DNA of 25,684 nt from a virus (lineage: Duplodnaviria; Heunggongvirae; Uroviricota; Caudoviricetes): the IMG/VR virus record IMGVR_UViG_3300029467_000153; one strand, written 5' to 3'. Under the pieces are notes generated by a model, which was not told where the DNA came from, did no database searches, and saw nothing but the letters and a program-made list of their open reading frames with translations. Shown piece after piece: positions 8,247-25,684 of the stretch (positions are counted from its first letter, which is position 1; each line of letters starts with the position of its first letter). The translations under genes and the position numbers were made by a program.

Positions 8247-8621
8247 GGGTGTTCATGGCGGTCATGTGCATTGAATACTGGCGGTAAATACAGCGAACTC
8301 CATTGGTTTAGTTGGATATTTACTGTGCTGGACAAAAACGGTTTGCGGGGAAATCTTAGTTAAGTAGAATGACTGCGGGTGCTTGAGGCTATCTGCCTCG
8401 GGCACGAACACCAACGGCAGGTAGAGAAAAGCCCCAGTTAACATTACGCGTCCTGCAAGACGCTTAACATTAATCTGAGGCCAATTTCATGCCAGACACA
8501 TGTAGGTTAGCCTCTTACGTGCCGAAAGGCAAGGAGAAGCAGGCTATTGTTAACACCAAGCTGTAATGTCCCCTTTGAACCATTCTAAAATGTCCCCAGA
8601 CAATTCTCTGGGGGATTTTTC

Positions 8622-9963
8622 ATGACCAAAGAAACTGTTACGATGAGTCATAAGGAACTCCACCGACTTCAGATTATTCAGGAGTCAATTAATCGACATA
8701 TTACTCAGGAACAAGCTGCGGCACGCATTGGCATTTCTATTCGGCAGGTTAAACGTCTGGTGCAACGGTATAGAAATGAAGGGCCTTCTGGTCTGGTTTC
8801 CCACCGACGTGGAAAGCGTCCTAATAATTCCTTTTCTACTGAATTCAGAGCAACAGTAATTTCACTCCTCAAAGGCCGTTACGCTGATTTTGGACCTACG
8901 TTTGCGTGCGAAAAATTGCGCGAGATACACGGTTTATCTTTATCCGTTGAAACTCTCAGAAAGTGGATGATAGAAGAGGGGGGTATGGCGTGAACGCCGT
9001 CGTAAAATTGCCCGTATATATCAACGCCGCATGCGACGACCATCTTACGGTGAACTGATCCAGATTGATGGCTCACCTCATGACTGGTTTGAAAATCGAG
9101 GCCCCAGATGTACACTGATCGTTTTCATTGATGATGCCACCAGTGCGTTGATGGCGTTGCGTTTTGTGCCTGCTGAAACAACCCGGGCTTACATGGAAAC
9201 CCTCCGGGGTTACCTTAATGATCATGGCGTACCGCTCGCTCTCTACTCTGATAGACACAGTATATTCAGGGTAAATAACCCAGAGCGGGAAGGTGAGCTG
9301 ACCCAGTTCACTCGTGCGATAAAGACACTGGGCATCGAGCCAATCCATGCCAACAGCCCGCAGGCAAAAGGGCGGGTAGAGCGCGCCAATCAGACACTAC
9401 AGGACAGGCTGGTCAAAGAAATGCGGCTTCAGAATATCAGTGATATTGAAACAGCAAATGCATGGTTGCCGACCTTTATTGAAGCCTATAACAACCGGTT
9501 CGCTACGTCGCCTCGTACTACTGATAATGCTCATCTTGATGTGCACCATTCTGAAGAGGAACTGGGTTATATCTTCAGCCTACAGGCGAAGCGCGTTCTG
9601 TCTAAAAATCTCACTTTCCAGTACAAAAGCAGTGCGTTTCAGGTACGCAGTGAGGGCCGGGGATATCGACTTAGGCATTCGGTTGTTACTGTATGCGAGA
9701 ACTTTGACGGTGAAATTAACGTTCTGTATGACGGGAAAGCGCTGGGCTGGGAAAAGTATGTTGATGGCCCGGAGCCTATACCACTGGATGATGAAAAGAG
9801 TGTCCATGAACGAGTGGATAATGCCCGTATTGATTTACGCTCAAAATACTATGTTAAACCTAAAGCTGACCATCCCTGGCTTACGCGCCGAACGCAAAGT
9901 CATCAGCAAGTTAAGCCCCCGAAGTTACCTAAAAAGAAGCCTGATCCCGATAAAAAAGATTGA
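8622..9963 (+). mobile_element. IS-element DDE transposase (N-terminal HTH plus integrase-core/rve-like domain), split by a frameshift
   Basis: ORF 8622-8993 (HTH-like N-terminus) and ORF 9031-9963 (DDE-like motifs IQIDGSPHDW, YSDRHSIF, SPQAKGRVERANQTL) are in different frames and overlap around a G6 run at 8978-8983; removing one G fuses them (...MIEEGVWRERRRKIARIYQRRMRRPSYGELIQIDG...). IS family and terminal inverted repeats were not determined. Confidence 0.65.
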
Positions 9964-10399
9964 AACCAAGATCGATTCGGTTGAGTGCATATCCATTCAT
10001 AGGGTAGATTCTTAAGTCGCGTTTCTGGTGTTCATTTTCGGGTGGTTTGTTACTTGTTTTACCGGGGATATGCCAGAAACGCGCTGAGTCAGTCTGGGCG
10101 GTGCGCGTAATGAGGCGTTATGGTAAATAGCCTATGCTAATGTCCGCTAAGAGCAAGAAGCGGAAGTTGGCAGTTTTGTGGACTGTCCCCACAAAAGTGA
10201 CTACAGAAATAGTTGCAATTCATAATTGATCATGGGTTGTCAGTTAAACTCGTGGCGATTTAAATAGACTAATTGGGAGTGCGTCCATTACTTATATCTT
10301 GTAATGTTAACTATCAGAAATGATACAAAGATAATATGTCTTTAAAGAAAAGGCTGATGGCGAAAAGTGGCCCGATGAGGGCCACAATACGGCTGTCAC

Positions 10400-10732
10400 T
10401 TAGACGTAAATATCAATGGTGCCAGCGGTATTTGTATCGTCTTTTTTCTCTTCTTTTTTATCAGGCTGAACTGTCGCGTCTTTATTCTTTTTCTCTGCCT
10501 GCTGCCTTAACAACTGCTCCAGTTGAGCCCTGAGGCTTTCAATTTGCTTCTGTACCAATGCAGCCATTTCTTTTTTCTGCTGTGTCGTCATCCCCTCTTC
10601 CGATGAGATTTTCCCAAGCTTTTCAGTCAGCACCTGAATTTGTCTTGTGATTTTGGCTATTTCTGATGTTCCTTCCGGGGCGGAGTTGTTTGAAATAACG
10701 GTTGAGGTATTTCCCTGAATTGTGACAGACAT
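10400..10732 (-). CDS. flxA: FlxA (FliA-regulated protein)
   Basis: 110-aa ORF MSVTIQGNTSTVISNNSAPEGTSEIAKITRQIQVLTEKLGK... matching my recollection of FlxA; AAGGAG Shine-Dalgarno 7 nt upstream; a sigma-28-type promoter lies immediately upstream. Confidence 0.75.
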   Translation of the reverse strand: MSVTIQGNTSTVISNNSAPEGTSEIAKITRQIQVLTEKLGKISSEEGMTTQQKKEMAALVQKQIESLRAQLEQLLRQQAEKKNKDATVQPDKKEEKKDDTNTAGTIDIYV

Positions 10733-10755
10733 AGATTTCTCCTTTTAAAAAAGCA

Positions 10756-10782
10756 CTATCGGCATGCACAAAAAAATCTTTA
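10756..10782 (-). promoter_or_regulatory. sigma-28 (FliA) class-3 promoter of flxA
   Basis: On the minus strand TAAAGATT-N11-GCCGATAG against the consensus TAAAGTTT-N11-GCCGATAA, about 25-50 nt upstream of the flxA ATG. Confidence 0.6.
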
Positions 10783-10934
10783 ATCGTATTTCTTGTGTCA
10801 TTAATTGTTTGATGTTCAGATTGTTTTCCTCGCGGGCTGGCGCGCCTCAGAAAGTAAAGCTTGTTGACAGGGGTAAACGTTCGGCAATAATTTTCTGCCG
10901 CATGCGGGTGTTGCATAAAACGTGCTACGTTCCT

Positions 10935-11240
10935 TTATCGACAGGTCAGGTCACCGCTCACCCGCCGACGAGAAAGCAACACTGACATGCTAAAGCAAAA
11001 AATAGATGAATAAGTTGAGTTGTGCATATGTAGCCTGACCGTCACAAAGTATATGGTGTCTGTACCAGTAAGATGATGGCCGGACTCTTTAAAAACGAGC
11101 TGACCTGCACAATACAGGATGGACTTAGCAATGGCTGCTCCTGGCACAAAGCGGACAGTGATCACCGTTCTTACGACTACTTTCTGACTTCCTTCGTGAC
11201 TTGCCCTAAGCATGTTGTAGTGCGATACTTGTAATGACAT
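10935..11240 (-). CDS. hypothetical protein (YdfV-like by position)
   Basis: 101-aa ORF divergent from relB; assigned only by position and length relative to K-12 gene order. Its start abuts the relB operator, which is suspicious. Confidence 0.25.
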   Translation of the reverse strand: MSLQVSHYNMLRASHEGSQKVVVRTVITVRFVPGAAIAKSILYCAGQLVFKESGHHLTGTDTIYFVTVRLHMHNSTYSSIFCFSMSVLLSRRRVSGDLTCR

Positions 11241-11253
11241 TTGTAATTACAAG
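11228..11253 (+). promoter_or_regulatory. relBE operator (relO-type inverted repeats) in the relB promoter
   Basis: cttgtaatgacatttgtaattacaag contains the perfect palindrome TTGTAATTACAA plus an additional TTGTAAT half-site, ending 12 nt before the relB ATG. Confidence 0.6.
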
Positions 11254-11264
11254 AGGTGTAAGAC

Positions 11265-11504
11265 ATGGGTAGCATTAACCTGCGTATTGACGATGAACTT
11301 AAAGCGCGTTCTTACGCCGCGCTTGAAAAAATGGGTGTAACTCCTTCTGAAGCGCTTCGTCTCATGCTCGAGTATATCGCTGACAATGAACGCTTGCCGT
11401 TCAAACAGACACTCCTGAGTGATGAAGATGCTGAACTTGTGGAGATAGTGAAAGAACGGCTTCGTAATCCTAAGCCAGTACGTGTGACGCTGGATGAACT
11501 CTGA
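11265..11504 (+). CDS. relB: RelB antitoxin
   Basis: 79-aa ORF MGSINLRIDDELKARSYAALEKMGVTPSEALRLMLEYIADNERLPF... (ribbon-helix-helix antitoxin); GAGGTG Shine-Dalgarno; stop overlaps the relE start (ATGA). Confidence 0.9.
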   Translation: MGSINLRIDDELKARSYAALEKMGVTPSEALRLMLEYIADNERLPFKQTLLSDEDAELVEIVKERLRNPKPVRVTLDEL

Positions 11505-11791
11505 TGGCGTATTTTCTGGATTTTGACGAGCGGGCACTAAAGGAATGGCGAAAGCTGGGCTCGACGGTACGTGAACAGTTGAAAAAGAAGCTGGTTGAAG
11601 TACTTGAGTCACCCCGGATTGAAGCAAACAAGCTCCGTGGTATGCCTGATTGTTACAAGATTAAGCTCCGGTCTTCAGGCTATCGCCTTGTATACCAGGT
11701 TATAGACGAGAAAGTTGTCGTTTTCGTGATTTCTGTTGGGAAAAGAGAACGCTCGGAAGTATATAGCGAGGCGGTCAAACGCATTCTCTGA
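11504..11791 (+). CDS. relE: RelE mRNA-interferase toxin
   Basis: 95-aa ORF MAYFLDFDERALKEWRKLGSTVREQLKKKL...GYRLVYQVIDEKVVVFVISVGKRERSEVY, translationally coupled to relB. Confidence 0.9.
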   Translation: MAYFLDFDERALKEWRKLGSTVREQLKKKLVEVLESPRIEANKLRGMPDCYKIKLRSSGYRLVYQVIDEKVVVFVISVGKRERSEVYSEAVKRIL

Positions 11792-11862
11792 ACCAAAGCA
11801 TGACATCTCTGTTTCGCACCGAAGGTGACACTTCTGCTTTGCGTTGACAGGAGAAGCAGGCT

Positions 11863-12018
11863 ATGAAGCAGCAAAAGGCGATGTTAATCGCCCTGATCGT
11901 CATCTGTTTAACCGTCATAGTGACGGCACTGGTAACGAGGAAAGACCTCTGCGAGGTACGAATCCGAACCGGCCAGACGGAGGTCGCTGTCTTCACAGCT
12001 TACGAACCTGAGGAGTAA
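11863..12018 (+). CDS. hokD: Hok-family type I toxin (HokD/RelF)
   Basis: 51-aa ORF, below the ORF-track cutoff, found by direct translation: MKQQKAMLIALIVICLTVIVTALVTRKDLCEVRIRTGQTEVAVFTAYEPEE; carries the Hok signature TRK.LCE.R....EVA.F.AYE and sits just downstream of relE. Confidence 0.85.
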   Translation: MKQQKAMLIALIVICLTVIVTALVTRKDLCEVRIRTGQTEVAVFTAYEPEE

Positions 12019-12086
12019 GAGACCCGGCGGGGGAGAAATCCCTCGCCACCTCTGATGTGGCAGGCATCCTCAACGCACCCGCACTT

Positions 12087-12112
12087 AACCCGCTTCGGCG
12101 GGTTTTTGTTTT
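12087..12112 (+). terminator. rho-independent terminator after relB-relE-hokD
   Basis: aacccgc-ttcg-gcgggtt hairpin followed by tttttgtttttatttt. Confidence 0.6.
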
Positions 12113-12234
12113 TATTTTCAACGCGTTTGAAGTTCTGGACGGTGCCGGAATAGAATCAAAAATACTTAAGTAGCGCGCAGGGATAAGAGGGATGGTCCCT
12201 TAAAGGGGAGAGCTAATTATCCGGAAGGATTCTG

Positions 12235-12486
12235 ATGATGAACATCGAAGAACTGCGTAAAATTTTTTGTGAAGATGGCCTCTATGCTGTGTGCGTTGAA
12301 AATGGAAATCTTGTTAGTCATTACCGCATTATGTGTTTGCGAAAGAATGGGGCTGCGTTAATTAATTTTGTGGATGCTCGGGTCACGGACGGATTTATCT
12401 TGCGCGAAGGTGAGTTTGTCACTTCATTACAGGCATTGAAAGAGATCGGAATAAAAGCTGGCTTTTCTGCTTTTTCAGGAGAATAA
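12235..12486 (+). CDS. rem: small prophage protein Rem-like
   Basis: 83-aa ORF adjacent to hokD as in K-12 Qin; assigned by position and recollection, function unknown. Confidence 0.55.
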   Translation: MMNIEELRKIFCEDGLYAVCVENGNLVSHYRIMCLRKNGAALINFVDARVTDGFILREGEFVTSLQALKEIGIKAGFSAFSGE

Positions 12487-12552
12487 ACTCATCTACAATC
12501 TTGCGCGGGGCTGAACTCCCGCTGAGTAACACCGTGCCACCGGAGAAAACCG

Positions 12553-12831
12553 ATGGCACGCAACGCAAAATATTACAATTCTGATAATTCGCCCGTTCTT
12601 GCCTGCACGCACGGGCGGTATTCTCACGCATTCAAGTCTGAATGGTTCCAGCACCCTCCATGCACTGCAGAACAGGCCGAATGGCTGATTCATTCTTACC
12701 GCAGGCGCGGGTTCGAGGTTAAGAAAGCTCTCAGTCTCGACTATCGGCACTGGATAATCTCTGTCAGGCTGCCTTATTCCGAACGCCCACCACGTGCGTC
12801 CCGCACTTTCCAGCAACGGATCTGGAGGTAA
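12553..12831 (+). CDS. hypothetical protein
   Basis: 92-aa ORF overlapping the next gene by 38 nt in another frame; no recognisable motif. Confidence 0.3.
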   Translation: MARNAKYYNSDNSPVLACTHGRYSHAFKSEWFQHPPCTAEQAEWLIHSYRRRGFEVKKALSLDYRHWIISVRLPYSERPPRASRTFQQRIWR

Positions 12832-13882
12832 CGTGCGGGTATTACTTAGACCTGTTCTGGTGCCTGAGCTTGGGCTGGTGGTCCTTAAGCCAGGCCGTGA
12901 ATCCATACAGATATTTCATAATCCTCGAGTGCTGGTGGAACCGGAACCAAAAAGCATGCGTAATCTGCCATCCGGAGTCGTTCCTGCCGTTCGCCAGCCG
13001 CTGGCGGAAGACAAAACATTGCTGCCGTTTTTTAGTAACGAACGGGTGATTCGTGCTGCTGGCGGCGTTGGCGCATTGTCCGACTGGCTATTACGTCATG
13101 TTACATCCTGCCAGTGGCCTAATGGCGATTACCATCACACTGAAACAGTCATTCACCGTTATGGTACCGGCGCAATGGTGTTGTGCTGGCACTGCGACAA
13201 CCAACTGCGTGACCAGACATCGGAATCACTGGAGCTGCTTGCTCAACAAAATCTGACAGCATGGGTGATTGACGTCATCCGTCACGCAATAAGCGGTACG
13301 CAGGAGCGGGAATTATCTTTGGCTGAATTATCCTGGTGGGCGGTCTGCAATCAGGTGGTGGATGCACTACCTGAGGCTGTATCGCGTCGTTCGCTGGGAT
13401 TACCAGCGGAAAAAATCTGCTCGGTGTACCGCGAAAGCGACATCGTACCGGGAGAGCAGACCGCCACCAGCATATTGAAACAACGCACAAAAAATCTTGC
13501 ACCGTTGCCTTACGCCCACCAGCAACAAAAATCACCACAGGAAAAGACGGTGGTAAGCATCACCGTTGATCCAGAGTCTCCGGAATCTTTCATGAAGCTG
13601 CCTAAACGTCGCCGCTGGGTTAAGGAGAAATACACACGTTGGGTTAAGACACAGCCGTGTGCTTGCTGCGGTATGCCAGCCGACGATCCGCATCATCTGA
13701 TTGGTCACGGGCAGGGCGGAATGGGAACAAAAGCACATGATCTCTTTGTGTTGCCTTTGTGCAGAAAGCATCACAACGAGCTGCATACGGATACAGTGGC
13801 ATTTGAAGATAAGTATGGCTCCCAACTGGAGCTGATATTTCGTTTTATCGATCGCGCGCTGGCAATTGGCGTACTGGCGTAA
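12794..13882 (+). CDS. ydfU: DUF968-type prophage protein (YdfU-like) with C-terminal Cys/His cluster
   Basis: 362-aa ORF; C-terminus CACCGMPADDPHHLIGHGQGGMGTKAHDLFVLPLCRKHHNELH looks like a metal-binding HNH-like motif; sits in the nin-region position upstream of Q. True start uncertain. Confidence 0.6.
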   Translation: MRPALSSNGSGGNVRVLLRPVLVPELGLVVLKPGRESIQIFHNPRVLVEPEPKSMRNLPSGVVPAVRQPLAEDKTLLPFFSNERVIRAAGGVGALSDWLLRHVTSCQWPNGDYHHTETVIHRYGTGAMVLCWHCDNQLRDQTSESLELLAQQNLTAWVIDVIRHAISGTQERELSLAELSWWAVCNQVVDALPEAVSRRSLGLPAEKICSVYRESDIVPGEQTATSILKQRTKNLAPLPYAHQQQKSPQEKTVVSITVDPESPESFMKLPKRRRWVKEKYTRWVKTQPCACCGMPADDPHHLIGHGQGGMGTKAHDLFVLPLCRKHHNELHTDTVAFEDKYGSQLELIFRFIDRALAIGVLA

Positions 13883-13895
13883 GTGGAGAACGAGC

Positions 13896-14648
13896 ATGAA
13901 CCTTGAAGCCTTACCAAAATATTACTCCCCAAAATCTCCAAAATTGAGCGATGACGCTCCAGCGACAGGCACCGGTTGTTTAACAATTACGGATGTAATG
14001 GCAGCGCAGGGGATGGTGCAGTCGAAAGCACCACTTGGGTTGGCCTTATTTCTGGCAAAAGTTGGTGTTCAGGACCCTCAGTTTGCGATTGAAGGCCTGC
14101 TAAATTACGCGATGGCACTGGATAACCCGACATTGAACAAATTGAGTGAAGAAATCCGGTTACAGATTATTCCTTACCTCGTGAGTTTTGCCTTTGCTGA
14201 TTACTCCAGGTCTGCGGCAAGTAAGGCTCGCTGTGAGCATTGTTCAGGTACGGGATTTTATAATGTATTGCGCGAAGTGGTGAAACACTACAGACGCGGG
14301 GAATCTGTAATCAAGGAAGAATGGGTGAAGGAACTATGTCAGCATTGCCATGGTAAGGGCGAAGCCAGCACAGCGTGCAGAGGGTGTAAGGGTAAAGGGA
14401 TTGTTCTGGATGAAAAAAGAACCCGGTTTCATGGCGTACCGGTATATAAGATTTGTGGGCGTTGTAATGGAAACCGGTTTAGTCGTTTACCGACCACGCT
14501 GGCACGACGTCATGTCCAGAAGCTGGTACCAGACCTGACCGATTATCAGTGGTATAAGGGGTATGCGGACGTCATTGGTAAACTGGTAACAAAGTGCTGG
14601 CAGGAAGAAGCATACGCGGAAGCGCAATTGAGGAAGGTGACGAGATAA
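13896..14648 (+). CDS. quuQ: late-gene antiterminator Q
   Basis: Start taken at the internal ATG 13896 (MNLEALPKYYSPK...) preceded by GGAGA; Cys/His-rich zinc-binding region (CEHCSGTG...CQHCHGKG...CRGCKGKG...CGRCNG); located just upstream of the lysis region. Confidence 0.8.
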   Translation: MNLEALPKYYSPKSPKLSDDAPATGTGCLTITDVMAAQGMVQSKAPLGLALFLAKVGVQDPQFAIEGLLNYAMALDNPTLNKLSEEIRLQIIPYLVSFAFADYSRSAASKARCEHCSGTGFYNVLREVVKHYRRGESVIKEEWVKELCQHCHGKGEASTACRGCKGKGIVLDEKRTRFHGVPVYKICGRCNGNRFSRLPTTLARRHVQKLVPDLTDYQWYKGYADVIGKLVTKCWQEEAYAEAQLRKVTR

Positions 14649-14679
14649 ATGATTTTTGCTGAAGATGGCGACATGATGT

Positions 14680-14708
14680 TTGCATTTTTCAAAAAATATG
14701 GATAAAAT
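14680..14708 (+). promoter_or_regulatory. candidate late promoter (PR'-like) downstream of Q
   Basis: TTGCAT-N17-TAAAAT about 35 nt after the Q stop and about 45 nt before a strong terminator, the arrangement expected for a Q-utilisation promoter and short leader. The -35 is weak. Confidence 0.35.
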
Positions 14709-14754
14709 TTTTTCAACGATGGGCTTTGTATACCCGACGTTAAGAAAAAGTAGA

Positions 14755-14784
14755 AAACCCGCTGATGAGCGGGTTTTGTGCTTT
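14755..14784 (+). terminator. rho-independent terminator (tR'-like)
   Basis: aaacccgct-gatg-agcgggttt hairpin followed by tgtgcttt. Confidence 0.6.
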
Positions 14785-15069
14785 AAATGGGGCAATGGTA
14801 ATGTTGAATCTCATCCCGGGACTCATGTCTGTTAACTTATTATTTAGCTGGTGACTTGGTTATTTGCCTGATGTTTAAAATGTTTTCTTCCAGTACAATG
14901 TCCCTAAACACAATGAGTCTGCTTATTATATTATTAGCAGAGCTATTACGGCCAAAGTACAGCATAAGCTTTTAAAGCCAATCAACCAGTCATCAAGACA
15001 GACGGGGTTATTCATAAAAACTCTCCATGTGTGATTCGATGGGGCCTGAAATTAAAGCTTTAATATAGC

Positions 15070-15282
15070 TCATGAAAGGTAAACATTGGCAGCTGAAGGG
15101 CCACGCAGACCATTTATCCGGCAAAATTCCACGCGTAATCCGGTGGTAATTTCTTCTGCATCGCGGAGATTGAGCGCTGAGACATGAAGCTGGACATCGA
15201 TACGACCATCGGATGGGGTGATAAGACCCTTGCCGCTTTTGCCGTCAAAGGTTTTGACAATTCCTGTCATTTTACGGGACAA
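15070..15282 (-). CDS. cspF: cold-shock-domain protein CspF
   Basis: 70-aa CspA-family [29 protein letters not shown]...[16 protein letters not shown], lacking the canonical aromatic RNP1 patch as in CspF/CspH; divergent from cspB. Confidence 0.8.
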
Positions 15283-15385
15283 AAAAATTCCTTAATACTG
15301 ATAACTTGGCGCACTATACACACGTTCCTGAAGAAAGCTATAGTTTTTTGATGGGGTTGAAGATGGCTGGATGTCTAAAATAAAC

Positions 15386-15414
15386 ATTGCTTCATATGTT
15401 CAACTATGCGTTAA
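15386..15414 (+). promoter_or_regulatory. candidate cspA-type promoter of cspB with long 5' UTR
   Basis: TTGCTT-N17-GTTAAT, about 170 nt upstream of the cspB ATG; the 11-mer ATGCGTTAATG is repeated upstream of cspI at the same relative position. Confidence 0.4.
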
Positions 15415-15582
15415 TGATTGCGTCGGTTTGAAGAACAGACGATATACGAAGTAGTTTACTAAAGCAGTTCTCATTTCAGGTGTTATTCACTTATTCCTTC
15501 TTTGAGTCTCTCCAATTAAGTACGAAGTCGTTTCTGTTATGCAAACCATTTATGCCGAAAGGCTCAAGTTAAGGAATGTAGA

Positions 15583-15798
15583 ATGTCAAATAAAATGACT
15601 GGTTTAGTAAAATGGTTTAACGCTGATAAAGGTTTCGGCTTTATTTCTCCTGTTGATGGTAGTAAAGATGTGTTTGTGCATTTTTCTGCGATTCAGAATG
15701 ATAATTATCGAACCTTATTTGAAGGTCAAAAGGTTACCTTCTCTATAGAGAGTGGTGCTAAAGGTCCTGCAGCAGCAAATGTCATCATTACTGATTAA
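15583..15798 (+). CDS. cspB: cold-shock protein CspB
   Basis: 71-aa [41 protein letters not shown]... with RNP1 (KGFGFI) and RNP2 (VFVHF) motifs. Confidence 0.9.
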
Positions 15799-16079
15799 AA
15801 TTCATCGCTCGTCTGTATACGATAACGAAGAAGGCTGATGCCTGAGTAGAGATACGGACAGAGTAGTGAATATTGGATCTCTTTAATAAAAAGTAAGGAG
15901 GTCCAATACATGAAACAATGGCTAGCATATTTGGCAAAATCTTAATCAGGAAAAGTATGCTAACCATTGTGGTGAAGTGCAGGTTTGCTGCATGAATAGT
16001 TTTACAGCAGAAGCTAACTGCTGGCATGGCAAAACAAAGTGCGTAAGTGGATGACTCCCACAAAAAGCACCACAATCTC

Positions 16080-16103
16080 AAACCCGCTCAGGCGGGTTTT
16101 TTA
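16080..16103 (+). terminator. rho-independent terminator between cspB and the minus-strand zinc-ribbon gene
   Basis: cccgc-tcag-gcggg hairpin followed by tttttt. Confidence 0.5.
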
Positions 16104-16161
16104 TTATCTGCTTTAAATATATTATTAAAATATAAAAAATACTTGTTACTAATAAAATCAA

Positions 16162-16332
16162 TCAGGCTACAGCTTTAAGATTTGTCTGGAATACTTTGTT
16201 GCAATGAGGGCAGATCAAAAGGGCACCTTTTTGTACTCTTGAAAAACTGTGTTCTGACTCTTGGGTGCAGTTTGGGCAGGAACATTTAACGAGATAATTA
16301 CGGCGTGATTTTGAGTTTTTACGTTCTGACAT
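16162..16332 (-). CDS. small zinc-ribbon protein (CPxC...CPxC), hypothetical
   Basis: 56 aa from the internal ATG, which has an AGGAAA Shine-Dalgarno: MSERKNSKSRRNYLVKCSCPNCTQESEHSFSRVQKGALLICPHCNKVFQTNLKAVA. The ORF track extends it to 16383. Confidence 0.45.
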   Translation of the reverse strand: MSERKNSKSRRNYLVKCSCPNCTQESEHSFSRVQKGALLICPHCNKVFQTNLKAVA

Positions 16333-16551
16333 AGGCTTTTCCTGTATAAATGGCCGTATACAGTACACTAAATATGAAAACATTTCTCGTATTATTATTT
16401 TATATATGACTTTCTTTCAAAATAATTACCCACATTTTTAATGTGTATGTTTTTTTAGCGCCGTTGAGAACAACGTGTGCTGTCAAAACTACCCCGTAGA
16501 CTCCGATCTTTTCAAACATATTGCACCATCCGTGTACATCGGGGTGAGGAT

Positions 16552-16767
16552 ATGAAATCAATGGATAAGTTAACAACAGGTGTTGCCTATGGCACATCGG
16601 CGGGTAATGCTGGTTTCTGGGCATTGCAGTTACTCGATAAAGTAACTCCGTCACAGTGGGCTGCAATCGGTGTGCTGGGTAGCCTGGTTTTTGGCCTGCT
16701 GACGTATCTGACAAATCTTTATTTCAAGATTAAAGAAGACAGGCGTAAGGCTGCGAGAGGAGAGTAA
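16552..16767 (+). CDS. essQ: class II holin / pinholin (phage 21 S-like) with dual-start motif
   Basis: [71 protein letters not shown]: two transmembrane segments, Met1-Lys-Ser-Met4 dual start, charged C-terminus; GTGAGGA Shine-Dalgarno upstream. Confidence 0.8.
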
Positions 16768-16771
16768 TCCA

Positions 16772-17079
16772 ATGACTCAAGACTATGAACTGGTTGTGAA
16801 AGGAGTCCGTAATTTTGAGAATAAAGTTACGGTAACTGTAGCCTTACAGGACAAAGAACGCTTTGACGGTGAAATTTTTGACCTGGATGTCGCCATGGAC
16901 CGTGTTGAAGGAGCTGCGCTGGAGTTTTATGAGGCAGCAGCCAGAAGGAGCGTCCGGCAAGTCTTCCTGGAAGTAGCAGAAAAATTGTCAGAAAAAGTTG
17001 AGTCTTATCTGCAGCATCAGTACTCCTTTAAGATTGAAAATCCTGCCAATAAGCACGAGCGTCCTCATCATAAATATAT

Positions 17080-17083
<4 letters not shown>
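16772..17083 (+). CDS. ydfR: YdfR-like protein of unknown function in the lysis cassette
   Basis: 103-aa ORF between holin and endolysin; GAGAGGAGAG Shine-Dalgarno; stop overlaps the endolysin start (ATGA). Confidence 0.65.
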
Positions 17084-18107
<1,024 letters not shown>

Positions 18108-18290
18108 GGTAATATTAAATCGGAACATTTACATCGCGGAATGTAAAATTTAAATAAAAAGGACTCTTCCATGAGCCAAAATTCCTGAAATCTTAAGGGT
18201 AAGATAAAAGGTCTTAATCAGAATGACACGTTATTATTAATAAATAAAGCTATTCTTTCATTGCTGTGTTTTTCTTTACAAAAGTAATCC

Positions 18291-18319
18291 TTGCTATGGG
18301 TGGTTAATCATGCGTTAAT
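18291..18319 (+). promoter_or_regulatory. candidate cspA-type promoter of cspI with long 5' UTR
   Basis: TTGCTA-N17-GTTAAT, about 155 nt upstream of the cspI ATG; shares ATGCGTTAATG with the cspB upstream region. Confidence 0.4.
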
Positions 18320-18470
18320 GGTGTTCTGGTTTGTTACAAATTTATCTGAAGCAGTCATTGTTATAATTTTATTATTTGTACCTCTTGAGATTTCCTTGTT
18401 GGTTTTTCTCTCTGATATTTTTTTTCGGACCATTCTGCCCAAGGGCTAATTTCTTCAAAAGGTAATAATT

Positions 18471-18683
18471 ATGTCTAACAAAATGACTGGTTTAGTGAAA
18501 TGGTTTAACCCTGAAAAAGGTTTTGGTTTCATCACGCCGAAAGATGGCAGCAAAGATGTGTTTGTCCATTTCTCAGCAATTCAGAGCAACGATTTCAAAA
18601 CATTAACTGAGAATCAGGAAGTTGAATTTGGTATTGAGAACGGACCTAAAGGTCCTGCCGCTGTTCATGTAGTGGCGCTTTGA
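18471..18683 (+). CDS. cspI: cold-shock protein CspI
   Basis: 70-aa [48 protein letters not shown]... with RNP1/RNP2 motifs. Confidence 0.9.
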
Positions 18684-18887
18684 GGTAGACAATATTACAA
18701 ACCATATTCACTTTAGATGCCCGTGTTGTCATGGTTCCCAGTATAGAACATCATCTTTTGATGTTTCTGACATGAATCCTTTCGGGGCAAAATGTATCTT
18801 TTGTAAATCAATGATGATTACATTTGATAATATTTCACAATACTTAAATGCCAGCCGTCTGTCGTTGGATTTAAAAAAGTGAAAATG

Positions 18888-18910
18888 AAGGCTCCTTCGG
18901 GAGCTTTTTT
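18888..18910 (+). terminator. rho-independent terminator downstream of cspI and the zinc-ribbon ORF remnant
   Basis: gctcc-ttcg-ggagc hairpin followed by tttttt. Confidence 0.55.
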
Positions 18911-18992
18911 GCTTGGTATCTATTCGATGGATACTCACATACTACGGTAACATCATGAAAAAAATCATAGTTTTTTTAACTCTGAACCTGCA

Positions 18993-19184
18993 GTGGTAGT
19001 GCCAGCGATGACTGGAGTTAACACCATCATGCGTGAATATCCAAATGGCGAAAAAACACACCTTACTGTAATGGCCGCAGGGTTTCCATCTCTGACCGGA
19101 GATCATAAAGTCATTTATGTAGCCGCGGATCGACATGTTACTTCAGAAGAAATTCTGGAAGCAGCAATAAGGCTCTTGAGTTGA
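18993..19184 (+). CDS. small protein, YnfN-like by position
   Basis: 63-aa ORF (possible internal start at 19008, MTGVNTIMREYPNGEK...); assigned by position between cspI and gnsB. Confidence 0.35.
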   Translation: MVVPAMTGVNTIMREYPNGEKTHLTVMAAGFPSLTGDHKVIYVAADRHVTSEEILEAAIRLLS

Positions 19185-19352
19185 TTTGATGCTATTGTAT
19201 TGATAATTCAGGAAAATTTTCTTTGTCTGTTTGTGTAAAATTTAGACTATCGTATGTTGATTATTGCGATGTTTCATCTTATCTTTTACACGTTTGCACC
19301 ATATAATCGACTTACTGTGTAACTGGAAAGTCATAACAGACTAAAAGAGGAA

Positions 19353-19529
19353 ATGATGAATATTGAAAACTTAAAAACAAAAGCAGAAGCAGATATTTCT
19401 GAATATATAACAAAAAAAATTATTGAACTTAAGAAAAAGACCGGGAAAGAAGTTACCAGTATTCAGTTTACCGCACGGGAAAAAATGACGGGTCTTGAAA
19501 GCTATGATGTCAAGATTAATTTAATCTGA
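19353..19529 (+). CDS. gnsB: Gns-family small protein (GnsB-like)
   Basis: 58-aa ORF, below the ORF-track cutoff, found by translation: MMNIENLKTKAEADISEYITKKIIELKKKTGKEVTSIQFTAREKMTGLESYDVKINLI; AAAAGAGGAA Shine-Dalgarno upstream. Confidence 0.7.
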   Translation: MMNIENLKTKAEADISEYITKKIIELKKKTGKEVTSIQFTAREKMTGLESYDVKINLI

Positions 19530-19680
19530 TGTATTCAATAATAAAATTTATCCATAAACCTCGTTTTTACGGGGTTTTGTTATATTTGAATGGTTCCGAA
19601 TATCTAAATCACAATTGTTGATGGTTTTTATTAAACCAATGCAGTCCGGCTCAGGAGTGAGAGAAGCCGGACGTTATGGT

Positions 19681-20106
19681 TTAGCGTGGTAAGATCTGTG
19701 TAGTTTTCTGGATGCTTTCAGTAAATAGTAATGAATTATCAAAGGTATAGTAATATCTTTTTTGTTCGTGGATATTTGTAACCCACCGAAAAACTCCTGC
19801 TTTAGCAAGGTTTCTTCTGTATTCCTGAAATGTGATCTCTCTGGATTTCAGCTTATTAGAGGTCGTTTCTATAAGATGCCTATCCTTTGAAAATTTGACA
19901 GACACAATGTTTTTTAGGCCCTTTAATAACACTGTATTATCATTTTTTAATACAATATGAACATTCTCTGTGGCTAAATAGTAAATGTAATGTGAGACAT
20001 TGTGACGTTTTAGCTCAGAATAAAACCATTGATAGTTTAAATCGTTTCGAACTTTATCAAATATTTGTTTAAAAATGACTACCTGATCCATAGATAAACC
20101 TTCCAT
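19681..20106 (-). CDS. ydfO: DUF1398-type prophage protein (YdfO-like)
   Basis: 141-aa ORF; assigned by recollection and position next to gnsB. Confidence 0.6.
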
Positions 20107-20148
20107 GTGATATGAGGGGGCGTAGTCTGCACGATTATCTAAATTGCT

Positions 20149-20382
20149 TCAATCTGGTCTGACCTGTTTTCTGAGCAATTCAGTAATGTCACTCTTTTCT
20201 TTGTTTGCTTCAGAAGAAACTCTTTTTTCTGAGCACAGTCTCCGGCGGCAGGCTTCAATGACCCAGGCTGAGAAATTCCCGGACCCTTTTTGCTCAAGAG
20301 CGATGTTAATTTGTTCAATCATTTGGTTAGGAAAGCGGATGTTGCGGGTTGTTGTTCTGCGGGTTCTGTTCTTCGTTGACAT
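20149..20382 (-). CDS. small basic protein, possibly ribbon-helix-helix (YnfO-like by position)
   Basis: 77-aa ORF with Arg/Thr-rich N-terminus (MSTKNRTRRTTTRNIRFPNQMIEQINIALEQKG...). Confidence 0.4.
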   Translation of the reverse strand: MSTKNRTRRTTTRNIRFPNQMIEQINIALEQKGSGNFSAWVIEACRRRLCSEKRVSSEANKEKSDITELLRKQVRPD

Positions 20383-20581
20383 GAGGTTGTCCCGTATTCA
20401 GTGTCGCTGATTTGTATTGTCTGAAGTTGTTTTTACGTTAAGTTGATGCAGATCAATTAATACGATATCTGCGTCATAATTGATTATTTGACGTGGTTTG
20501 ATGGCGTAGATGCACGTTGTGACATGCAGATGATAATTATTATCATTTTGCGGGTCCTTTCCGGCGATCCGACAGGTTACG

Positions 20582-20770
20582 GGGCGGCGACCTCGCGGGT
20601 TTTCGCTATTTATGAAAATTTTCCGGTTTAAGGCATTTCCGTTCTTCTTCGTCGTAACTTAATGTTTTTATTTAAAATACCCCCTGAAAAGAAAGGAAAC
20701 GACAGGTGCTGAAAACGAGCTTTTGGGCCTCTGTCGTTTCCTTTCTCTGTTTTTGGCCGTGGAATGAACA
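20582..20770 (+). other. lambda-type cos site: cosN (GGGCGGCGACCT, 20582-20593) and cosB with terminase-binding repeats
   Basis: gttacggggcggcgacctcgcgggttttcgctatttatgaaaattttccgg... is near-identical to my recollection of the phage lambda right-end/left-end junction; CGTTTCC-type R elements follow (ttccgttcttc, aaaggaaacgacag, ctgtcgtttcc) before the Nu1-like start. Confidence 0.75.
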
Positions 20771-21076
20771 ATGGAAGTCAACAAAAAGCAGCTGGCTGAC
20801 ATTTTCGGTGCGAGTATCCGTACCATTCAGAACTGGCAGGAACAGGGAATGCCCGTTCTGCGAGGCGGTGGCAAGGGTAATGAGGTGCTTTATGACTCTG
20901 CCGCTGTTATAAGATGGTATGCCGAAAGGGATGCTGAAATTGAGAACGAAAAGCTGCGCCGGGAAGTTGAAGAACTGCGGCAGGCCAGCGAGACAGATCT
21001 CCGACGTTCCTGGGTGACAAGCGTATTGAAGGCTCGGTCTGGCCAAAGTCCATCCGTGGCTCCACGCCCAAAGTGA
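20771..21076 (+). CDS. nohA: terminase small subunit (Nu1-like), truncated after about 75 residues by a deletion
   Basis: N-terminus MEVNKKQLADIFGASIRTIQNWQEQGMPVLRGGGKGNEVLYDSAAVI.WYAERDAEIENEKLRREVEELRQASE matches lambda Nu1 (from memory); after about residue 75 the ORF reads out of frame across a deletion junction. Confidence 0.7.
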   Translation: MEVNKKQLADIFGASIRTIQNWQEQGMPVLRGGGKGNEVLYDSAAVIRWYAERDAEIENEKLRREVEELRQASETDLRRSWVTSVLKARSGQSPSVAPRPK

Positions 21077-21615
21077 GAGGCACCTGTCAGATTGAGCGTG
21101 CAGCCAGTGAATCCCCGCATTTTATGCGTTTTCATGTTGCCTGCCCGCACTGCGGGGAGGAGCAGTACCTTAAATTTGGCGATAAAGAGACGCCGTTTGG
21201 CCTCAAATGGACGCCGGATGATCCCTCCAGCGTGTTTTATCTCTGCGAACATAATGCCTGCGTCATCCGCCAGCAGGAGCTGGACTTCACTGATGCCCGT
21301 TATATCTGCGAAAAGACCGGGATCTGGACCCGTGATGGCATTCTCTGGTTTTCGTCATCCGGTGAAGAGATTGAACCGCCTGACAGCGTGACCTTTCACA
21401 TCTGGACGGCGTACAGCCCGTTCACCACCTGGGTGCAGATTGTCAAAGACTGGATGAAGACGAAAGGGGATACGGGAAAACGTAAAACCTTCGTGAACAC
21501 CACGCTCGGTGAGACGTGGGAAGCGAAAATCGGCGAACGTCCGGATGCTGAAGTGATGGCAGAGCGGAAAGAGCATTATTCAGCGCCCGTTAGCGAATAC
21601 CAGTACAGATGGTAA
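20996..21615 (+). pseudogene. internal fragment of terminase large subunit (gpA-like), no native start
   Basis: Frame encodes ...KSIRGSTPKVRGTCQIERAASESPHFMRFHVACPHCGEEQYLKFGDKETPFGLKWTPDDP...EHYSAPV, which I recognise as an internal part of lambda gpA; the track ORF 21073-21615 begins at a GTG that is a Val codon in gpA. Confidence 0.7.
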
Positions 21616-21791
21616 TCATAGCCATTCACTGTCCGGCACAGCAGCATCTGCAGGTGCACACGCGCATACTGTCGGTATTGGTGCTCATACGCACTCCGTT
21701 GCGATTGGTTCACATGGACACACCATCACCGTTAACGCTGCTGGTAACGCGGAAAACACCGTCAAAAACATCGCATTTAACTATATTGTGA
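21600..21791 (+). pseudogene. C-terminal remnant of a side tail fibre gene (stf)
   Basis: Frame encodes ...[56 protein letters not shown]-stop, a typical tail-fibre C-terminus with HTH.G repeats; no upstream body or start; the stop is 10 nt before tfa. Confidence 0.55.
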
Positions 21792-21801
21792 GGCTTGCAT
21801 A

Positions 21802-22377
21802 ATGGCATTCAGAATGAGTGAACAACCACGGACCATAAAAATTTATAATCTGCTGGCCGGAACTAATGAATTTATTGGTGAAGGTGACGCATATATTCCG
21901 CCTCATACAGGTCTGCCAGCAAACAGTACCGATATTGCACCACCAGATATTCCTGCTGGCTTTGTGGCTGTTTTCAACAGTGATAAGGCATCGTGGCATC
22001 TCGTTGAAGACCATCGGGGTAAAACGGTTTATGACGTAGCGTCAGGGGACGCGTTATTTATTTCTGAACTCGGTCCGTTACCGGAAAATGTTACCTGGTT
22101 ATCGCCGGAAGGGGAGTTTCAGAAGTGGAACGGCACAGCCTGGGTGAAAGATGCAGAAGCAGAAAAACTGTTCCGGATCCGAGAGGCGGAAGAAACAAAA
22201 AACAGCCTGATGCAGGTAGCCAGTGAGCATATTGCGCCACTTCAGGATGCTGTAGATCTGGAAATCGCAACGGAGGAAGAAACCTCATTGCTGGAAGCCT
22301 GGAAAAAGTATCGGGTGTTGCTGAACCGTGTTGATACGTCAACTGCACAGGATATTGAATGGCCAGCACTGCCGTAG
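21802..22377 (+). CDS. tfaQ: tail fibre assembly protein
   Basis: 191-aa [51 protein letters not shown]... typical of lambdoid/Mu-type Tfa chaperones; directly follows the stf remnant. Confidence 0.8.
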
Positions 22378-22474
22378 GGTAAAACATATAAATTCTATAA
22401 TTAGATGTATCTTTCCATTTACGGCAAGGAAGGGGGCTTGGAAGACGTAAAGCATCTCACACCGAGATTATTTT

Positions 22475-23065
22475 TTATATGTCAGGTGTCTGAAGTTTTG
22501 CTTTGGCTCTTAAAATGGTTTGCCGCGAGGTTTTGAATTCCCGGGCAATGGCACTTATACTTACACCTGACTTAATTCGTTCGAATACCACCTGTTTCTG
22601 TTCTTCATTTAACACAGGTGGTCGATCAAAACGTTTCCCTGCGCCGCGGGCTCTTACTATCCCGGAATGAGTGCGTTCAAGTAAAAGGTCTCGTTCAAAT
22701 TCAGCGACTGCTGAAATTACGTGCATCATCATTTTTCCTGTTGGACTGGTCAGGTCAATGCCCCCCAATGCTAAGCAATGCACTCTGATACCTGTTTCGG
22801 TCAGTTGTTCCACTGTTTTCCTGATATCCATTGCATTACAACCAAGGCGATCCAGTTTTGTCACAATCAATTGATCACCACATTTCAGGCGAGCAAGCAA
22901 CCGGTTAAAACCAGGACGCTCACTGGTTGCTGCTGAGCCGCTAATGTGTTCTTCGATTATTTGCTGAGGTTTGATTTTAAAACCTGCACTTTCGATTTCC
23001 CGGCGTTGATTTTCGATGGTCTGATCCAGCGTTGATATCCGACAGTAAGCAAAAATTCGAGACAT
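22475..23065 (-). CDS. pinQ: serine DNA invertase (Pin/Gin/Hin family)
   Basis: 196-aa ORF; N-terminal catalytic motif [15 protein letters not shown], resolvase core and C-terminal HTH ([20 protein letters not shown]). Confidence 0.9.
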
Positions 23066-23381
23066 AGTGAGACTCTATACGAAATTGGTGTTCATATCAT
23101 AATGCATCTCAGAAAATAATTTTGATTATTTTTGTGCATATTTGTATGTACACGTTCGAAAATAAACGAATGCGTATGCAACCCCGTAATTTTGGTGAGA
23201 CCCAAAATCGATTTTGTGAAAAATGGCTTTAACTCGGTTTGTTTTTCGAGTTCCGGGCGGACTCAAGGAAGAAGAATAGTGTTGCGTGTTATTTTAACCA
23301 GATTTCAAGTTGTTTGATCGTGGAAAAGTGGAGCAAAATGTTGTTAAAGTGGAAAAATGATAAAAAAGTAAGTTTATTATA

Positions 23382-23615
23382 TTACATTTTACCATTTAAA
23401 TTTTGGTTGTCTTTAAGAACTGATATCGCTGTTTGTAATAATTCTTTGTTATCCAGCCATGATTTTTTCTTTATGTTTCCTTCAATGTAATCAAGCAATG
23501 TTCTGGTATTGATAGGTCTTCCCTGTTTTGCTACTTCCACTACAGCATCCCCTAGGATAATTCTTACTTCAGGAAGCTGCGCAGGGAACCACTTTAGGGT
23601 GTCTTTTGATTTCAT
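23382..23615 (-). CDS. ydfK: small prophage protein (YdfK-like by position)
   Basis: 77 aa from the internal ATG, which has an AAGGA Shine-Dalgarno (MKSKDTLKWFPAQLPEVRIILGDAVVEVAKQG...); lies between pin and attR. Confidence 0.45.
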   Translation of the reverse strand: MKSKDTLKWFPAQLPEVRIILGDAVVEVAKQGRPINTRTLLDYIEGNIKKKSWLDNKELLQTAISVLKDNQNLNGKM

Positions 23616-24395
23616 GAAGATATTCCTTAAAATATTATTGAGTTTCATTGCGATATTGTATGTCTGATTCAGGATATGTTGACTTATACATCGGTTTTGT
23701 CTGGGTTATTGGATATGCCAATCCCTAATTTTATTAGGGCATGACTAAAAATGCTGAATATGATAAGGAGAGAAGTGATTATCAGTATGCTGTTCATATA
23801 GCCTCGAATTAGTAATGTGTTATATATGATATAGTTGACAATTTTTATCTTGGGTGTTCTTAAAGTTCGTAGATAAACATTGTCGTTTCAGGTATACAGG
23901 AATGCTAACAGGTGGCAGCAAAAATCAGGCGGTTTATGGCGCAAGCTGAAGCGGCAACTGCAAACTATCTTATGCAGAGACTCTACACGGATTGGGTTTA
24001 AAAGTATACATAGATAACAGTTTTTATCTGAAAAAGAAAAATATCAAGGTGATATAGCCTATATGCCTTTGATGCGGAGGAATGAATGTGATGGGAGTGA
24101 TGTATCTGAATAGTTGAAAAACCGCAGACACGCCTTATGCAAGAACGTGCTGCGGTTGGCTGGTAAATTTTTCGATAGTGTGAGTATTGAATGATTTCCA
24201 GCCGTTCTTGATTTTACGCATAAATCCATGAAAAAACTACTTATCTGTTGGGGAGTTTTTTTGGGGCATATATGGGACAGAAATAGGCCCCAGATAGACA
24301 CTGAGATCGAACTTAGGATGCTTTTTAAAAAATGCAACTATCTGAAAAAACCTAGAAAACGCCAAGGAAACCACAGGATGGGAAAAAACACCTGT

Positions 24396-24409
24396 GAATT
24401 ATGGATTTC
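24396..24409. repeat. attR core, direct repeat of 1156-1170
   Basis: gaattatggatttc; the ydfJ reading frame resumes here. Confidence 0.55.
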
Positions 24410-25684
24410 CAGTTATATTCGCTCGGCGCAGCGTTAGTGTTTCATGAAATATTTTTTCCTGAATCATCAACGGCAATGGCGTTAATTCTGGCAATGGGAA
24501 CCTACGGTGCAGGTTATGTGGCGCGTATTGTCGGAGCATTTATTTTCGGCAAAATGGGCGACAGAATAGGGCGTAAAAAAGTGCTCTTTATTACCATCAC
24601 CATGATGGGGATCTGTACCACCTTAATTGGTGTGTTACCGACCTATGCACAGATTGGTGTTTTTGCACCCATCTTGCTGGTGACGTTGCGTATTATTCAG
24701 GGGTTGGGTGCAGGTGCGGAAATTTCCGGTGCCGGTACGATGCTGGCGGAATATGCGCCAAAAGGTAAGCGCGGAATTATCTCCTCATTTGTGGCTATGG
24801 GAACTAACTGCGGAACCTTGAGCGCAACGGCAATCTGGGCCTTTATGTTCTTCATTCTCAGTAAAGAGGAACTGCTGGCGTGGGGATGGCGTATACCGTT
24901 CCTGGCGAGCGTTGTCGTGATGGTCTTTGCTATCTGGTTGCGTATGAATCTGAAAGAAAGCCCGGTCTTTGAGAAGGTTAACGACAGTAACCAACCGACA
25001 GCAAAACCTGCACCTGCTGGTAGCATGTTCCAGAGCAAATCCTTCTGGCTGGCAACAGGGCTGCGTTTTGGTCAGGCGGGTAACTCCGGGTTAATTCAGA
25101 CTTTCCTTGCAGGCTATTTAGTGCAGACGTTATTGTTTAACAAAGCAATTCCAACAGATGCATTGATGATCAGTTCGATTCTCGGCTTTATGACCATTCC
25201 GTTCCTTGGTTGGTTATCCGATAAAATTGGTCGCCGGATCCCGTATATTATTATGAATACCTCCGCGATTGTGCTGGCATGGCCAATGCTTTCTATCATT
25301 GTAGATAAAAGCTATGCCCCGAGCACCATTATGGTTGCACTGATTGTGATTCATAACTGTGCGGTGCTGGGATTATTTGCTCTGGAAAACATTACCATGG
25401 CAGAAATGTTCGGCTGTAAAAACCGCTTTACCCGGATGGCTATTTCTAAAGAAATTGGTGGTCTTATCGCTTCCGGTTTTGGTCCTATCCTGGCGGGTAT
25501 TTTCTGCACCATGACGGAATCCTGGTATCCGATCGCCATTATGATCATGGCATATTCAGTGATTGGTTTAATCTCTGCGCTGAAAATGCCAGAGGTGAAA
25601 GACCGTGATTTAAGTGCGCTGGAAGACGCTGCGGAAGATCAACCGCGTGTTGTAAGAGCTGCGCAACCTTCCAGAAGTCTGTAA
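24401..25684 (+). CDS. ydfJ: MFS transporter (YdfJ-like), 3' portion separated from its first 31 codons by the prophage
   Basis: 427-aa ORF with the MFS loop-2/3 motif GKMGDRIGRKKV at residue about 50, too close to the N-terminus for an intact MFS (TM1 missing); the missing N-terminus is encoded at 1078-1170; an in-frame stop sits immediately upstream of 24401. Confidence 0.75.
   Translation: MDFQLYSLGAALVFHEIFFPESSTAMALILAMGTYGAGYVARIVGAFIFGKMGDRIGRKKVLFITITMMGICTTLIGVLPTYAQIGVFAPILLVTLRIIQGLGAGAEISGAGTMLAEYAPKGKRGIISSFVAMGTNCGTLSATAIWAFMFFILSKEELLAWGWRIPFLASVVVMVFAIWLRMNLKESPVFEKVNDSNQPTAKPAPAGSMFQSKSFWLATGLRFGQAGNSGLIQTFLAGYLVQTLLFNKAIPTDALMISSILGFMTIPFLGWLSDKIGRRIPYIIMNTSAIVLAWPMLSIIVDKSYAPSTIMVALIVIHNCAVLGLFALENITMAEMFGCKNRFTRMAISKEIGGLIASGFGPILAGIFCTMTESWYPIAIMIMAYSVIGLISALKMPEVKDRDLSALEDAAEDQPRVVRAAQPSRSL

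Follow-up and report, generated by a model that had tools for sequence, protein, structure and literature searches.

Further decay at the packaging end of the cryptic prophage Qin: a rare allele with a lambda-like cos site beside fragments of terminase and tail-fibre genes

What has become of a phage in which a cos site resembling that of lambda is followed by the start of the small terminase gene Nu1, then by an internal piece of the large terminase gene A (product gpA), and then at once by the end of a tail-fibre gene? Such a locus occurs in a stretch of 25,684 nucleotides (IMG/VR virus record IMGVR_UViG_3300029467_000153), the whole of which is called the window below. The question is whether the retained cos belongs to an element that a helper phage could still mobilise, or whether the locus is what deletions have left of an ordinary prophage. 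Based on alignments with lambda, with a complete phage and with the prophages of other strains, we consider it very probable that we are dealing with the packaging and tail end of Qin, a cryptic lambdoid prophage, in an allele that ordinary prophage decay has taken further than the K-12 copy.

The setting of the segment is that of Qin. The window begins in rspB (1-1020), spans a whole Qin prophage and ends with ydfJ, so that the element lies between rspB and ydfJ, the integration site of Qin, with att cores flanking it (at about 1156-1170 and 24397-24410). From rspB to ydfJ it is colinear with Qin of strain TOK-001 (NZ_AP018395) and of K-12 MG1655 at 99.4-99.9% identity; for K-12, the identity is 99.7% across window 9779-21002 and 98.8% across 21606-25684. 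Gene content and order are likewise those of Qin, with dicB, relBE, hokD, ydfU, ydfT, cspB/F/I and the lysis genes followed by gnsB, ydfO, ynfO, nohA, tfaQ, pinQ and ydfK. The open reading frames (ORFs) for GnsB, YdfO and YnfO stand directly upstream of cos, and the genes flanking the cos and terminase remnant are all ordinary Qin genes. A scan of 20100-22600 for promoters and terminators gave results no better than those for shuffled sequence.

The same modules are found in the same order, from int to pinQ, in Escherichia phage PhiR42_1 (PV340562, a record of 48,668 nt), which is apparently an intact Qin-like lambdoid phage and is 99.8% identical to the window over most of the regions in common. 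Its order is int, xis, exo, an immunity region of the dicA/dicC type, O, relBE, hokD, Q and the lysis genes, then cspI, gnsB, ydfO, ynfO, cos, Nu1, A and W through J, and finally lom, stf, tfa and pinQ. Unlike the window, the phage has complete Nu1 and A genes, W through J, lom and an stf of 3 kb. In comparison with it, the window is missing 24.7 kb in four deletions (866, 20,720, 2,085 and 986 nt), the last two of which lie elsewhere in the prophage.

The copy of Qin in K-12 MG1655 (nohA b1548, stfQ b1547, tfaQ b1546, pinQ b1545) occupies the same site with the same gene order, and its nucleotide identity with the window is 98.4-99.9% in the common blocks. There too, what follows cos and nohA is a tail-fibre remnant, after which come tfaQ and pinQ. 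However, K-12 Qin has a single junction, at lambda 719, which leaves 176 Nu1 codons, about 1 kb of stf and no gpA fragment, whereas the window keeps 77 Nu1, 196 gpA and 69 stf codons. In addition, int and xis are intact in the window and dicF, dicA and dicC are absent, while K-12 Qin shows the reverse. The K-12 prophage DLP12 is also comparable, in that its Nu1 homologue nohD is followed by a short gpA pseudogene, aaaD, and then by tfaD, although this is another prophage at another site, with a full-length nohD and different junctions. In DLP12, cos lies within a region of 98% identity between lambda and the prophage, and lambda recombinants carrying the DLP12 nu1 are viable (PMC3945230). Since Qin and DLP12 of K-12 have the same pattern, the kind of structure has long been known and annotated, and what the window holds is a rarer and further-decayed allele of the annotated Qin remnant. 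Literature searches on the function of nohA or on cos of Qin returned nothing specific beyond PMC3945230 and the 1983 paper by Espion et al. that defined Qin, the latter as cited in PMC5811629.

Blastn alignment with the lambda reference (NC_001416) gives the structure of the segment. Window 20220-20581 corresponds to the right end of lambda (48141-48502, 95.0% identity), 20582-21002 to lambda 1-422 (97.2%), 20998-21591 to lambda 1284-1877 (97.5%), and 21653-22367 to lambda 21824-22538, the end of stf plus tfa (92.9%). An identity of 97% across hundreds of bases is a resemblance far beyond chance. The features are listed in Table 1. A preliminary description of this DNA had proposed such an alignment, which placed both deletion junctions, here called J1 and J2, within a few bases of the positions that it had given (about 20995 and about 21590). 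Its account of a Nu1 gene that reads out of frame into an internal gpA segment ending in ...EHYSAPV agrees with the alignment, as does the removal of head and tail genes over about 20 kb, the loss at J2 being 20,720 nt relative to PhiR42_1. Two of its counts need correction. The retained start of Nu1 is indeed almost identical to lambda, with 77 codons instead of about 75, and the gpA piece does abut the end of a tail-fibre gene at J2, with 69 codons of that gene instead of roughly 60. As for colinearity with an intact small terminase gene, which the description had set against its own reading, there is none with lambda, PhiR42_1 or Qin of TOK-001.

Table 1. Features around cos in the window (window positions), followed by deletion alleles of Qin in other E. 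coli strains (lambda coordinates where alignable)
Feature or allele	Window position	Strand	Description	Basis
cosQ-like heptamer	20552-20558	+	GGGTCCT; lambda 48473-48479	Conserved in the alignment of lambda, K-12 Qin and TOK-001
cosN cohesive-end sequence	20582-20593	+	GGGCGGCGACCT, 12 nt	Window 20582 = lambda base 1
cosB	20634-20746	+	Three R boxes: R3, R2 (inverted), R1	3 matches against 0.03 expected
R3 box	20634-20645	+	CATTTCCGTTCT	Lambda 53-64
R2 box	20690-20701	-		Lambda 109-120
R1 box	20735-20746	+		Lambda 155-166
nohA' ORF	20771-21076	+	101 aa: Nu1 residues 1-77 plus 24 out-of-frame residues, stop	Pfam Phage_Nu1; PDB 1J9I
Junction J1	20998-21002		TCTCC microhomology; lambda 422 joined to 1289, 866 nt lost	Lambda alignment
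Internal gpA (large terminase) fragment	21004-21591	+	Codons 194-389 of 641 (196 codons)	Lambda alignment; Pfam
Junction J2	21589-21591		GTT microhomology; lambda 1877 joined to the 3' end of stf	Lambda, PhiR42_1 and TOK-001 alignments
stfQ remnant	21593-21802	+	End of the side tail fibre gene: 69 codons (21593-21799), then stop (21800-21802)	Pfam Phage_fiber repeat, E 6e-6
tfaQ, tail fibre assembly gene	21802-22377	+	Intact, 191 aa	Pfam Caudo_TAP, E 3e-44; named tfaQ in TOK-001 and K-12
pinQ, serine invertase gene	22475-23065	-	Intact, 196 aa	Pfam Resolvase and HTH_7; TOK-001 and K-12 annotations
Strain 789			Loss limited to W through the first part of H
KL53			427 joined to 914-2622, joined to J at 17822...
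HH107			427 joined to 914-2268, joined to J at 17832...
20AR0354			2736 joined to stf pieces
EC26			1944 joined to E 6683-7316, joined to stf
HL15			1856 joined to C 5140-5574, joined to tfa; no stf at all
E24377A			2268 joined to stf
WP2-S18			2268 joined to stf, 23 nt upstream of the E24377A point
TOK-001			2268 joined to stf at 21368
TUM12355			2061 joined to stf
DLI.5a			1894 joined to stf
AZ147			1759 joined to stf
CFSAN051542			427 joined to 914-1877, joined to stf
K-12			719 joined to stf

The deletion at J1 takes Nu1 codons 78-181 together with gpA codons 1-193, and since its 866 nt are not a multiple of three, nohA' reads out of frame after residue 77. Up to this point the product differs from lambda Nu1 by K48R and A75T. 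It matches the profile Phage_Nu1 (E 4e-47) at positions 1-79 of 164 and the structure 1J9I (Nu1 residues 1-68) completely, thus covering the whole solved DNA-binding domain, and it also matches the TerS(1-98) chain of the Rpp complex 6HN7. A full-length small subunit has 181 residues, with a C-terminal half for oligomerisation and gpA binding; here only residues 1-77 are present. The gpA piece, of 588 nt, matches the Pfam profile GpA_ATPase at positions 165-237 of 247 and GpA_nuclease at positions 2-69 of 294 only, with positions 1-164 of the former and 70-294 of the latter absent, so that no more than the final third of the ATPase domain and the initial quarter of the nuclease domain are left; the Walker A and B motifs of lambda gpA presumably precede residue 194. 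At J2, the loss amounts to 734 nt relative to TOK-001; relative to PhiR42_1 it comprises every head and tail gene together with lom, most of stf and 40% of A at the 3' end. The stfQ remnant is 99.9% identical to TOK-001, has no usable start codon and stands in a frame different from that of the gpA piece. Both junctions break the reading frame. Because the gpA fragment is without the Walker motifs and most of the nuclease domain, we infer at the level of domains that neither a terminase nor a tail fibre can be made from the locus.

The cos site has fared differently from the genes beside it. The cosN pattern ACGGGGCGGCGACCTCG has one match in the window against 0.01 expected by chance, and window 20579-20595, holding cosN with its flanking symmetry, is identical to lambda. 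The boxes R3, inverted R2 and R1 stand at the lambda spacing. R3 departs from lambda by a single change, G to A, and has it in common with both K-12 Qin and the complete phage PhiR42_1. From cosN through cosB (20582 to about 20770) the window is identical to K-12 Qin, and a stretch of 236 nt across cos, including the change in R3 and the heptamer GGGTCCT, which we take to be cosQ, is 100% identical to PhiR42_1. The preliminary description had noted that cos is retained; judged by every sequence criterion it is intact, and it has survived because no deletion reached it. In view of its complete identity to the cos of PhiR42_1, we may fairly expect the site still to be bound and nicked by a lambda-type terminase acting in trans, from a superinfecting or co-resident phage. 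Lambda packaging proceeds from cosN towards Nu1, and packaging from the cos of the window would run rightward into tfaQ, pinQ, ydfK and ydfJ. The scan with the cosN pattern finds no second cos in the window, so productive packaging is not to be expected and appears unlikely; the likely outcome of nicking would be a recombinogenic double-strand break with abortive or unterminated rightward packaging, and not mobilisation. Lambda is known to recombine with the remnants Qin, Rac and DLP12, and its crossovers with DLP12 cluster beside cos (PMC3945230).

It is of interest whether anything in the segment still has a function. The retained cos might make the Qin remnant of about 23 kb a helper-dependent satellite resembling the phage-inducible chromosomal islands (PICIs), excised by int and xis and packaged by a lambda-type helper. 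The intact cos, the open int and xis genes and the att cores on both sides suit this reading, and a cloned lambda cos alone suffices for plasmid transfer by lambda (PMC6739421). The cos-type PICIs, such as EcCICFT073 (PMC6739421), are like the window element in being chromosomal, in carrying a lambda-like cosQ and cosN, and in having no terminase of their own. They differ from it, however: their architecture is conserved, their cosB, replication and regulation are their own, and they have an Rpp that re-targets the helper TerS. The window element has lost its immunity and regulatory region, retains only a truncated O-like replication gene, has no Rpp-like or capsid-redirecting gene, and carries the phage's own cosB. 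Moreover, one unit would be about 23.3 kb, half the lambda genome, and would need concatemers; the many different remnants across strains are the opposite of a conserved satellite architecture; and deletion from a full phage explains the structure. We regard a satellite as very improbable. Hardly any credence can be given to a function of the 101-aa Nu1 fragment in which, like Rpp, it would interfere with the packaging of an incoming phage, either by binding cosB or by pairing with the small terminase of that phage. The fragment does hold the whole DNA-binding domain and does match the TerS chain of 6HN7, and an origin of Rpp proteins from TerS has been suggested (PMC6739421). But the last 24 residues of this ORF are a frame-shifted tail created by the 866-nt deletion, and other strains have a full-length or differently truncated nohA, which means that the 101-aa form is not conserved.

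A different objection is that the arrangement arose in assembly, as an artefact or a chimera. Probes of 100 nt across J1 and J2 have no colinear match among 5,426 complete E. coli genomes, where all full-coverage matches consist of two pieces 381-478 nt apart and so represent other alleles, and among the GTDB species representatives, which were scanned for J1 only, a 30-nt pattern of that junction has no match. Yet exact-protein look-up of the 101-aa ORF locates the allele in different samples from ENA and Logan, on at least 14 contigs that also agree in the 180-aa gpA ORF and in the spacing to tfaQ; over 20500-21900, two of these contigs (73 and 148 kb) match the window with 100% identity. 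An artefact is almost certainly not the explanation; the identical recurrence in independent public assemblies shows that the allele is real, and it is genuine but uncommon.

How the decayed Qin allele arose can be traced in part by comparison with related copies. An ancestral phage with the order of PhiR42_1 (cos, Nu1, A, W...J, lom, stf, tfa, pin) has lost its head and tail genes. The junction sequences, with TCTCC at J1, GTT at J2 and 2-7 nt elsewhere, point to illegitimate, microhomology-mediated deletion as the probable mechanism. The nearest haplotype is Qin of TOK-001, in which the gpA fragment is 100% identical (0 differences in 589 positions), the flanks are 99.6-99.9% identical (3 differences in 803 on the left and 1 in 909 on the right), and tfaQ and pinQ are colinear. 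Unlike the window, TOK-001 has a full-length nohA and an in-frame gpA-stf fusion ORF, with lambda 2268 joined to 21368. Relative to it the window shows four deletions similar in size, of 2,083, 986, 866 and 734 nt, each at a microhomology of 3-5 nt. On grounds of parsimony, two small secondary deletions in an allele like that of TOK-001 probably gave rise to the allele of the window. In this course of events, an older loss of about 19 kb would have produced the gpA-stf fusion of the TOK type with nohA intact, the lineage of the window would later have lost 866 nt at J1 and 734 nt at J2, and the deletion at J2 would have spanned and erased the older junction. Alternatively, J1 and J2 could themselves be the original events, an intact Qin phage having lost 866 nt and 20.7 kb directly, with no TOK-001-like intermediate. 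This route takes only two events, no further gap interrupts the alignment with PhiR42_1 in this region, and a junction of the TOK type is rare among the 5,426 genomes, 4 of which have it. Nevertheless, we think it rather unlikely. The gpA fragment is the same haplotype in the window and in TOK-001, with near-identical flanks, so that on the direct route about 20 kb would have had to be lost twice, independently, in the course of a very short divergence; and the lineage of the window has a run of other deletions of 0.7-2.1 kb relative to TOK-001, into which a loss of 734 nt at J2 fits.

The window is one of many states of this interval. At least 14 other E. coli strains have different junctions in it, each with 2-7 nt of microhomology (Table 1). 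In none of the alleles examined is cos or any of Nu1 codons 1-77 missing, which could hint at selection; the alleles were found with a query containing that very segment, and the sample is biased for this reason. Some breakpoints recur. Four alleles, those of TOK-001, HH107, E24377A and WP2-S18, break on the left at lambda 2268, each with a different right partner and on different gpA haplotypes; the window and CFSAN051542 both break on the left at lambda 1877, again with different haplotypes (14 differences in 589) and different right partners. The left ends at J1 are only 5 nt apart in these two alleles (422 and 427). In stf, the position ...GGATAT/CCAACAGCG, with the break at the stroke, is the partner of A in E24377A and of J in KL53 and HH107. 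Several breakpoints lie immediately 3' of (G)GATA, including that of the 2.09-kb deletion in the immunity region of the window itself. Plain random decay does not predict such re-use. It could be explained by a process, directed by sequence, that trims lambdoid prophages again and again at identical bases, in which case the deletions that dismantle Qin would not be random; we hold this to be doubtful. The re-use may instead come from slippage between a repeat spanning an old junction and its downstream copies, followed by gene conversion, for which co-resident lambdoid prophages would be the donors.

Several more specific readings of the breakpoints were tried and rejected. Comparison with known motifs, namely crossover sites of the Pin/Hin/Gin type, Dcm sites and topoisomerase preferences, gave no convincing match. 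A breakpoint common to the window and K-12 at window 21002 does not exist, as the alignment of K-12 to lambda continues to 719. Finally, simple descent of the window from the CFSAN051542 allele, with which it has the 1877 breakpoint in common, is contradicted by the gpA fragment: there the window has the TOK-001 sequence and departs from CFSAN051542 at 14 of 589 positions.

In itself the finding matters little, for it describes the packaging end of Qin once more; this precise allele had no counterpart in the set of complete genomes, and it adds one more state to a long series of deletion alleles. For annotation, the ORFs of 101 and 180 aa are pseudogene fragments of nohA and of the gpA gene, and the stf tail is non-coding. 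The intact cos would mark a site at which lambda-type phages can recombine with the chromosome or break it. If the deletions do turn out to be directed by sequence, the re-used breakpoints would point to a hot spot for a nuclease, a topoisomerase or a replication-slippage intermediate. Above the level of the single allele, PhiR42_1, strain 789, KL53, TOK-001 and the window, in this order, form a natural series of decay at one locus, which could be used to study how and where deletions form.

Outside the cos-terminase region, the window differs from PhiR42_1 by two deletions and one small insertion (see table). The larger deletion removes dicF, ydfC, ydfB, ydfA, dicA and dicC, that is, the immunity and division-control region, and leaves dicB and ydfD present but without their own promoter and regulators; no Rfam match to the DicF RNA is found anywhere in the window. 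The smaller one shortens the O-like replication gene at its 3' end and takes out the DUF977/LygF and methyltransferase genes. The insertion lies within a region of helix-turn-helix and ISNCY-transposase remnants, and in E. coli TOK-001, which has the nearest Qin haplotype, an IS66 insertion is located about 140 nt downstream of it (at window 8828-8839).

Features of the window (positions in nucleotides)
Feature	Position	Strand	Remarks
Putative att core GAATT(T)ATGGATTTC	1156-1170 and 24397-24410		one per prophage end
int	1208-2503	-	open
xis	2523-2774	-	open
2.09-kb deletion	5869-5872		GATA microhomology; relative to PhiR42_1, TOK-001 and K-12
986-nt deletion	6977-6988		GGT microhomology; relative to PhiR42_1 and TOK-001
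sok antitoxin RNA (Rfam)	8377-8548	+	adjoins hokD
27-nt insertion	8684-8710		relative to PhiR42_1; flanking TCAGGA repeat
cspA thermoregulator (Rfam)	15422-15814	+	upstream of cspB
cspA thermoregulator (Rfam)	18325-18710	+	upstream of cspI
IS009 RNA family (Rfam)	22145-22343	+	227 bits vs gathering score 117

The same deletion breakpoints recur across the Qin alleles carried by other strains of E. coli, as well as at J2, the window's junction of a gpA piece with the stf 3' end (21589-21591). The breakpoint at lambda 2268 is shared by four alleles, each of which has a different right partner, and that at lambda 1877 is common to the window and strain CFSAN051542, whose haplotypes are different. 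Many of the Qin breakpoints have (G)GATA directly on their 5' side. Simple descent does not account for this re-use.

Unlike K-12 Qin, in which intQ is an IS2-disrupted pseudogene, the window has an open int, and its 823-aa exonuclease gene is open as well. The circular junction of the PhiR42_1 record suggests the att core listed in the table. Among the RNA-family matches, the cspA thermoregulators and sok are ordinary Qin features, and the IS009 match falls within the tfaQ coding sequence.

PhiR42_1 (PV340562, whole record; host ECOR13) is deposited as a complete phage genome with the gene content and order of Qin, including relBE, hokD, cspB/F/I, gnsB and pinQ, and therefore the 'cryptic' prophage Qin has a living relative that appears to be intact.
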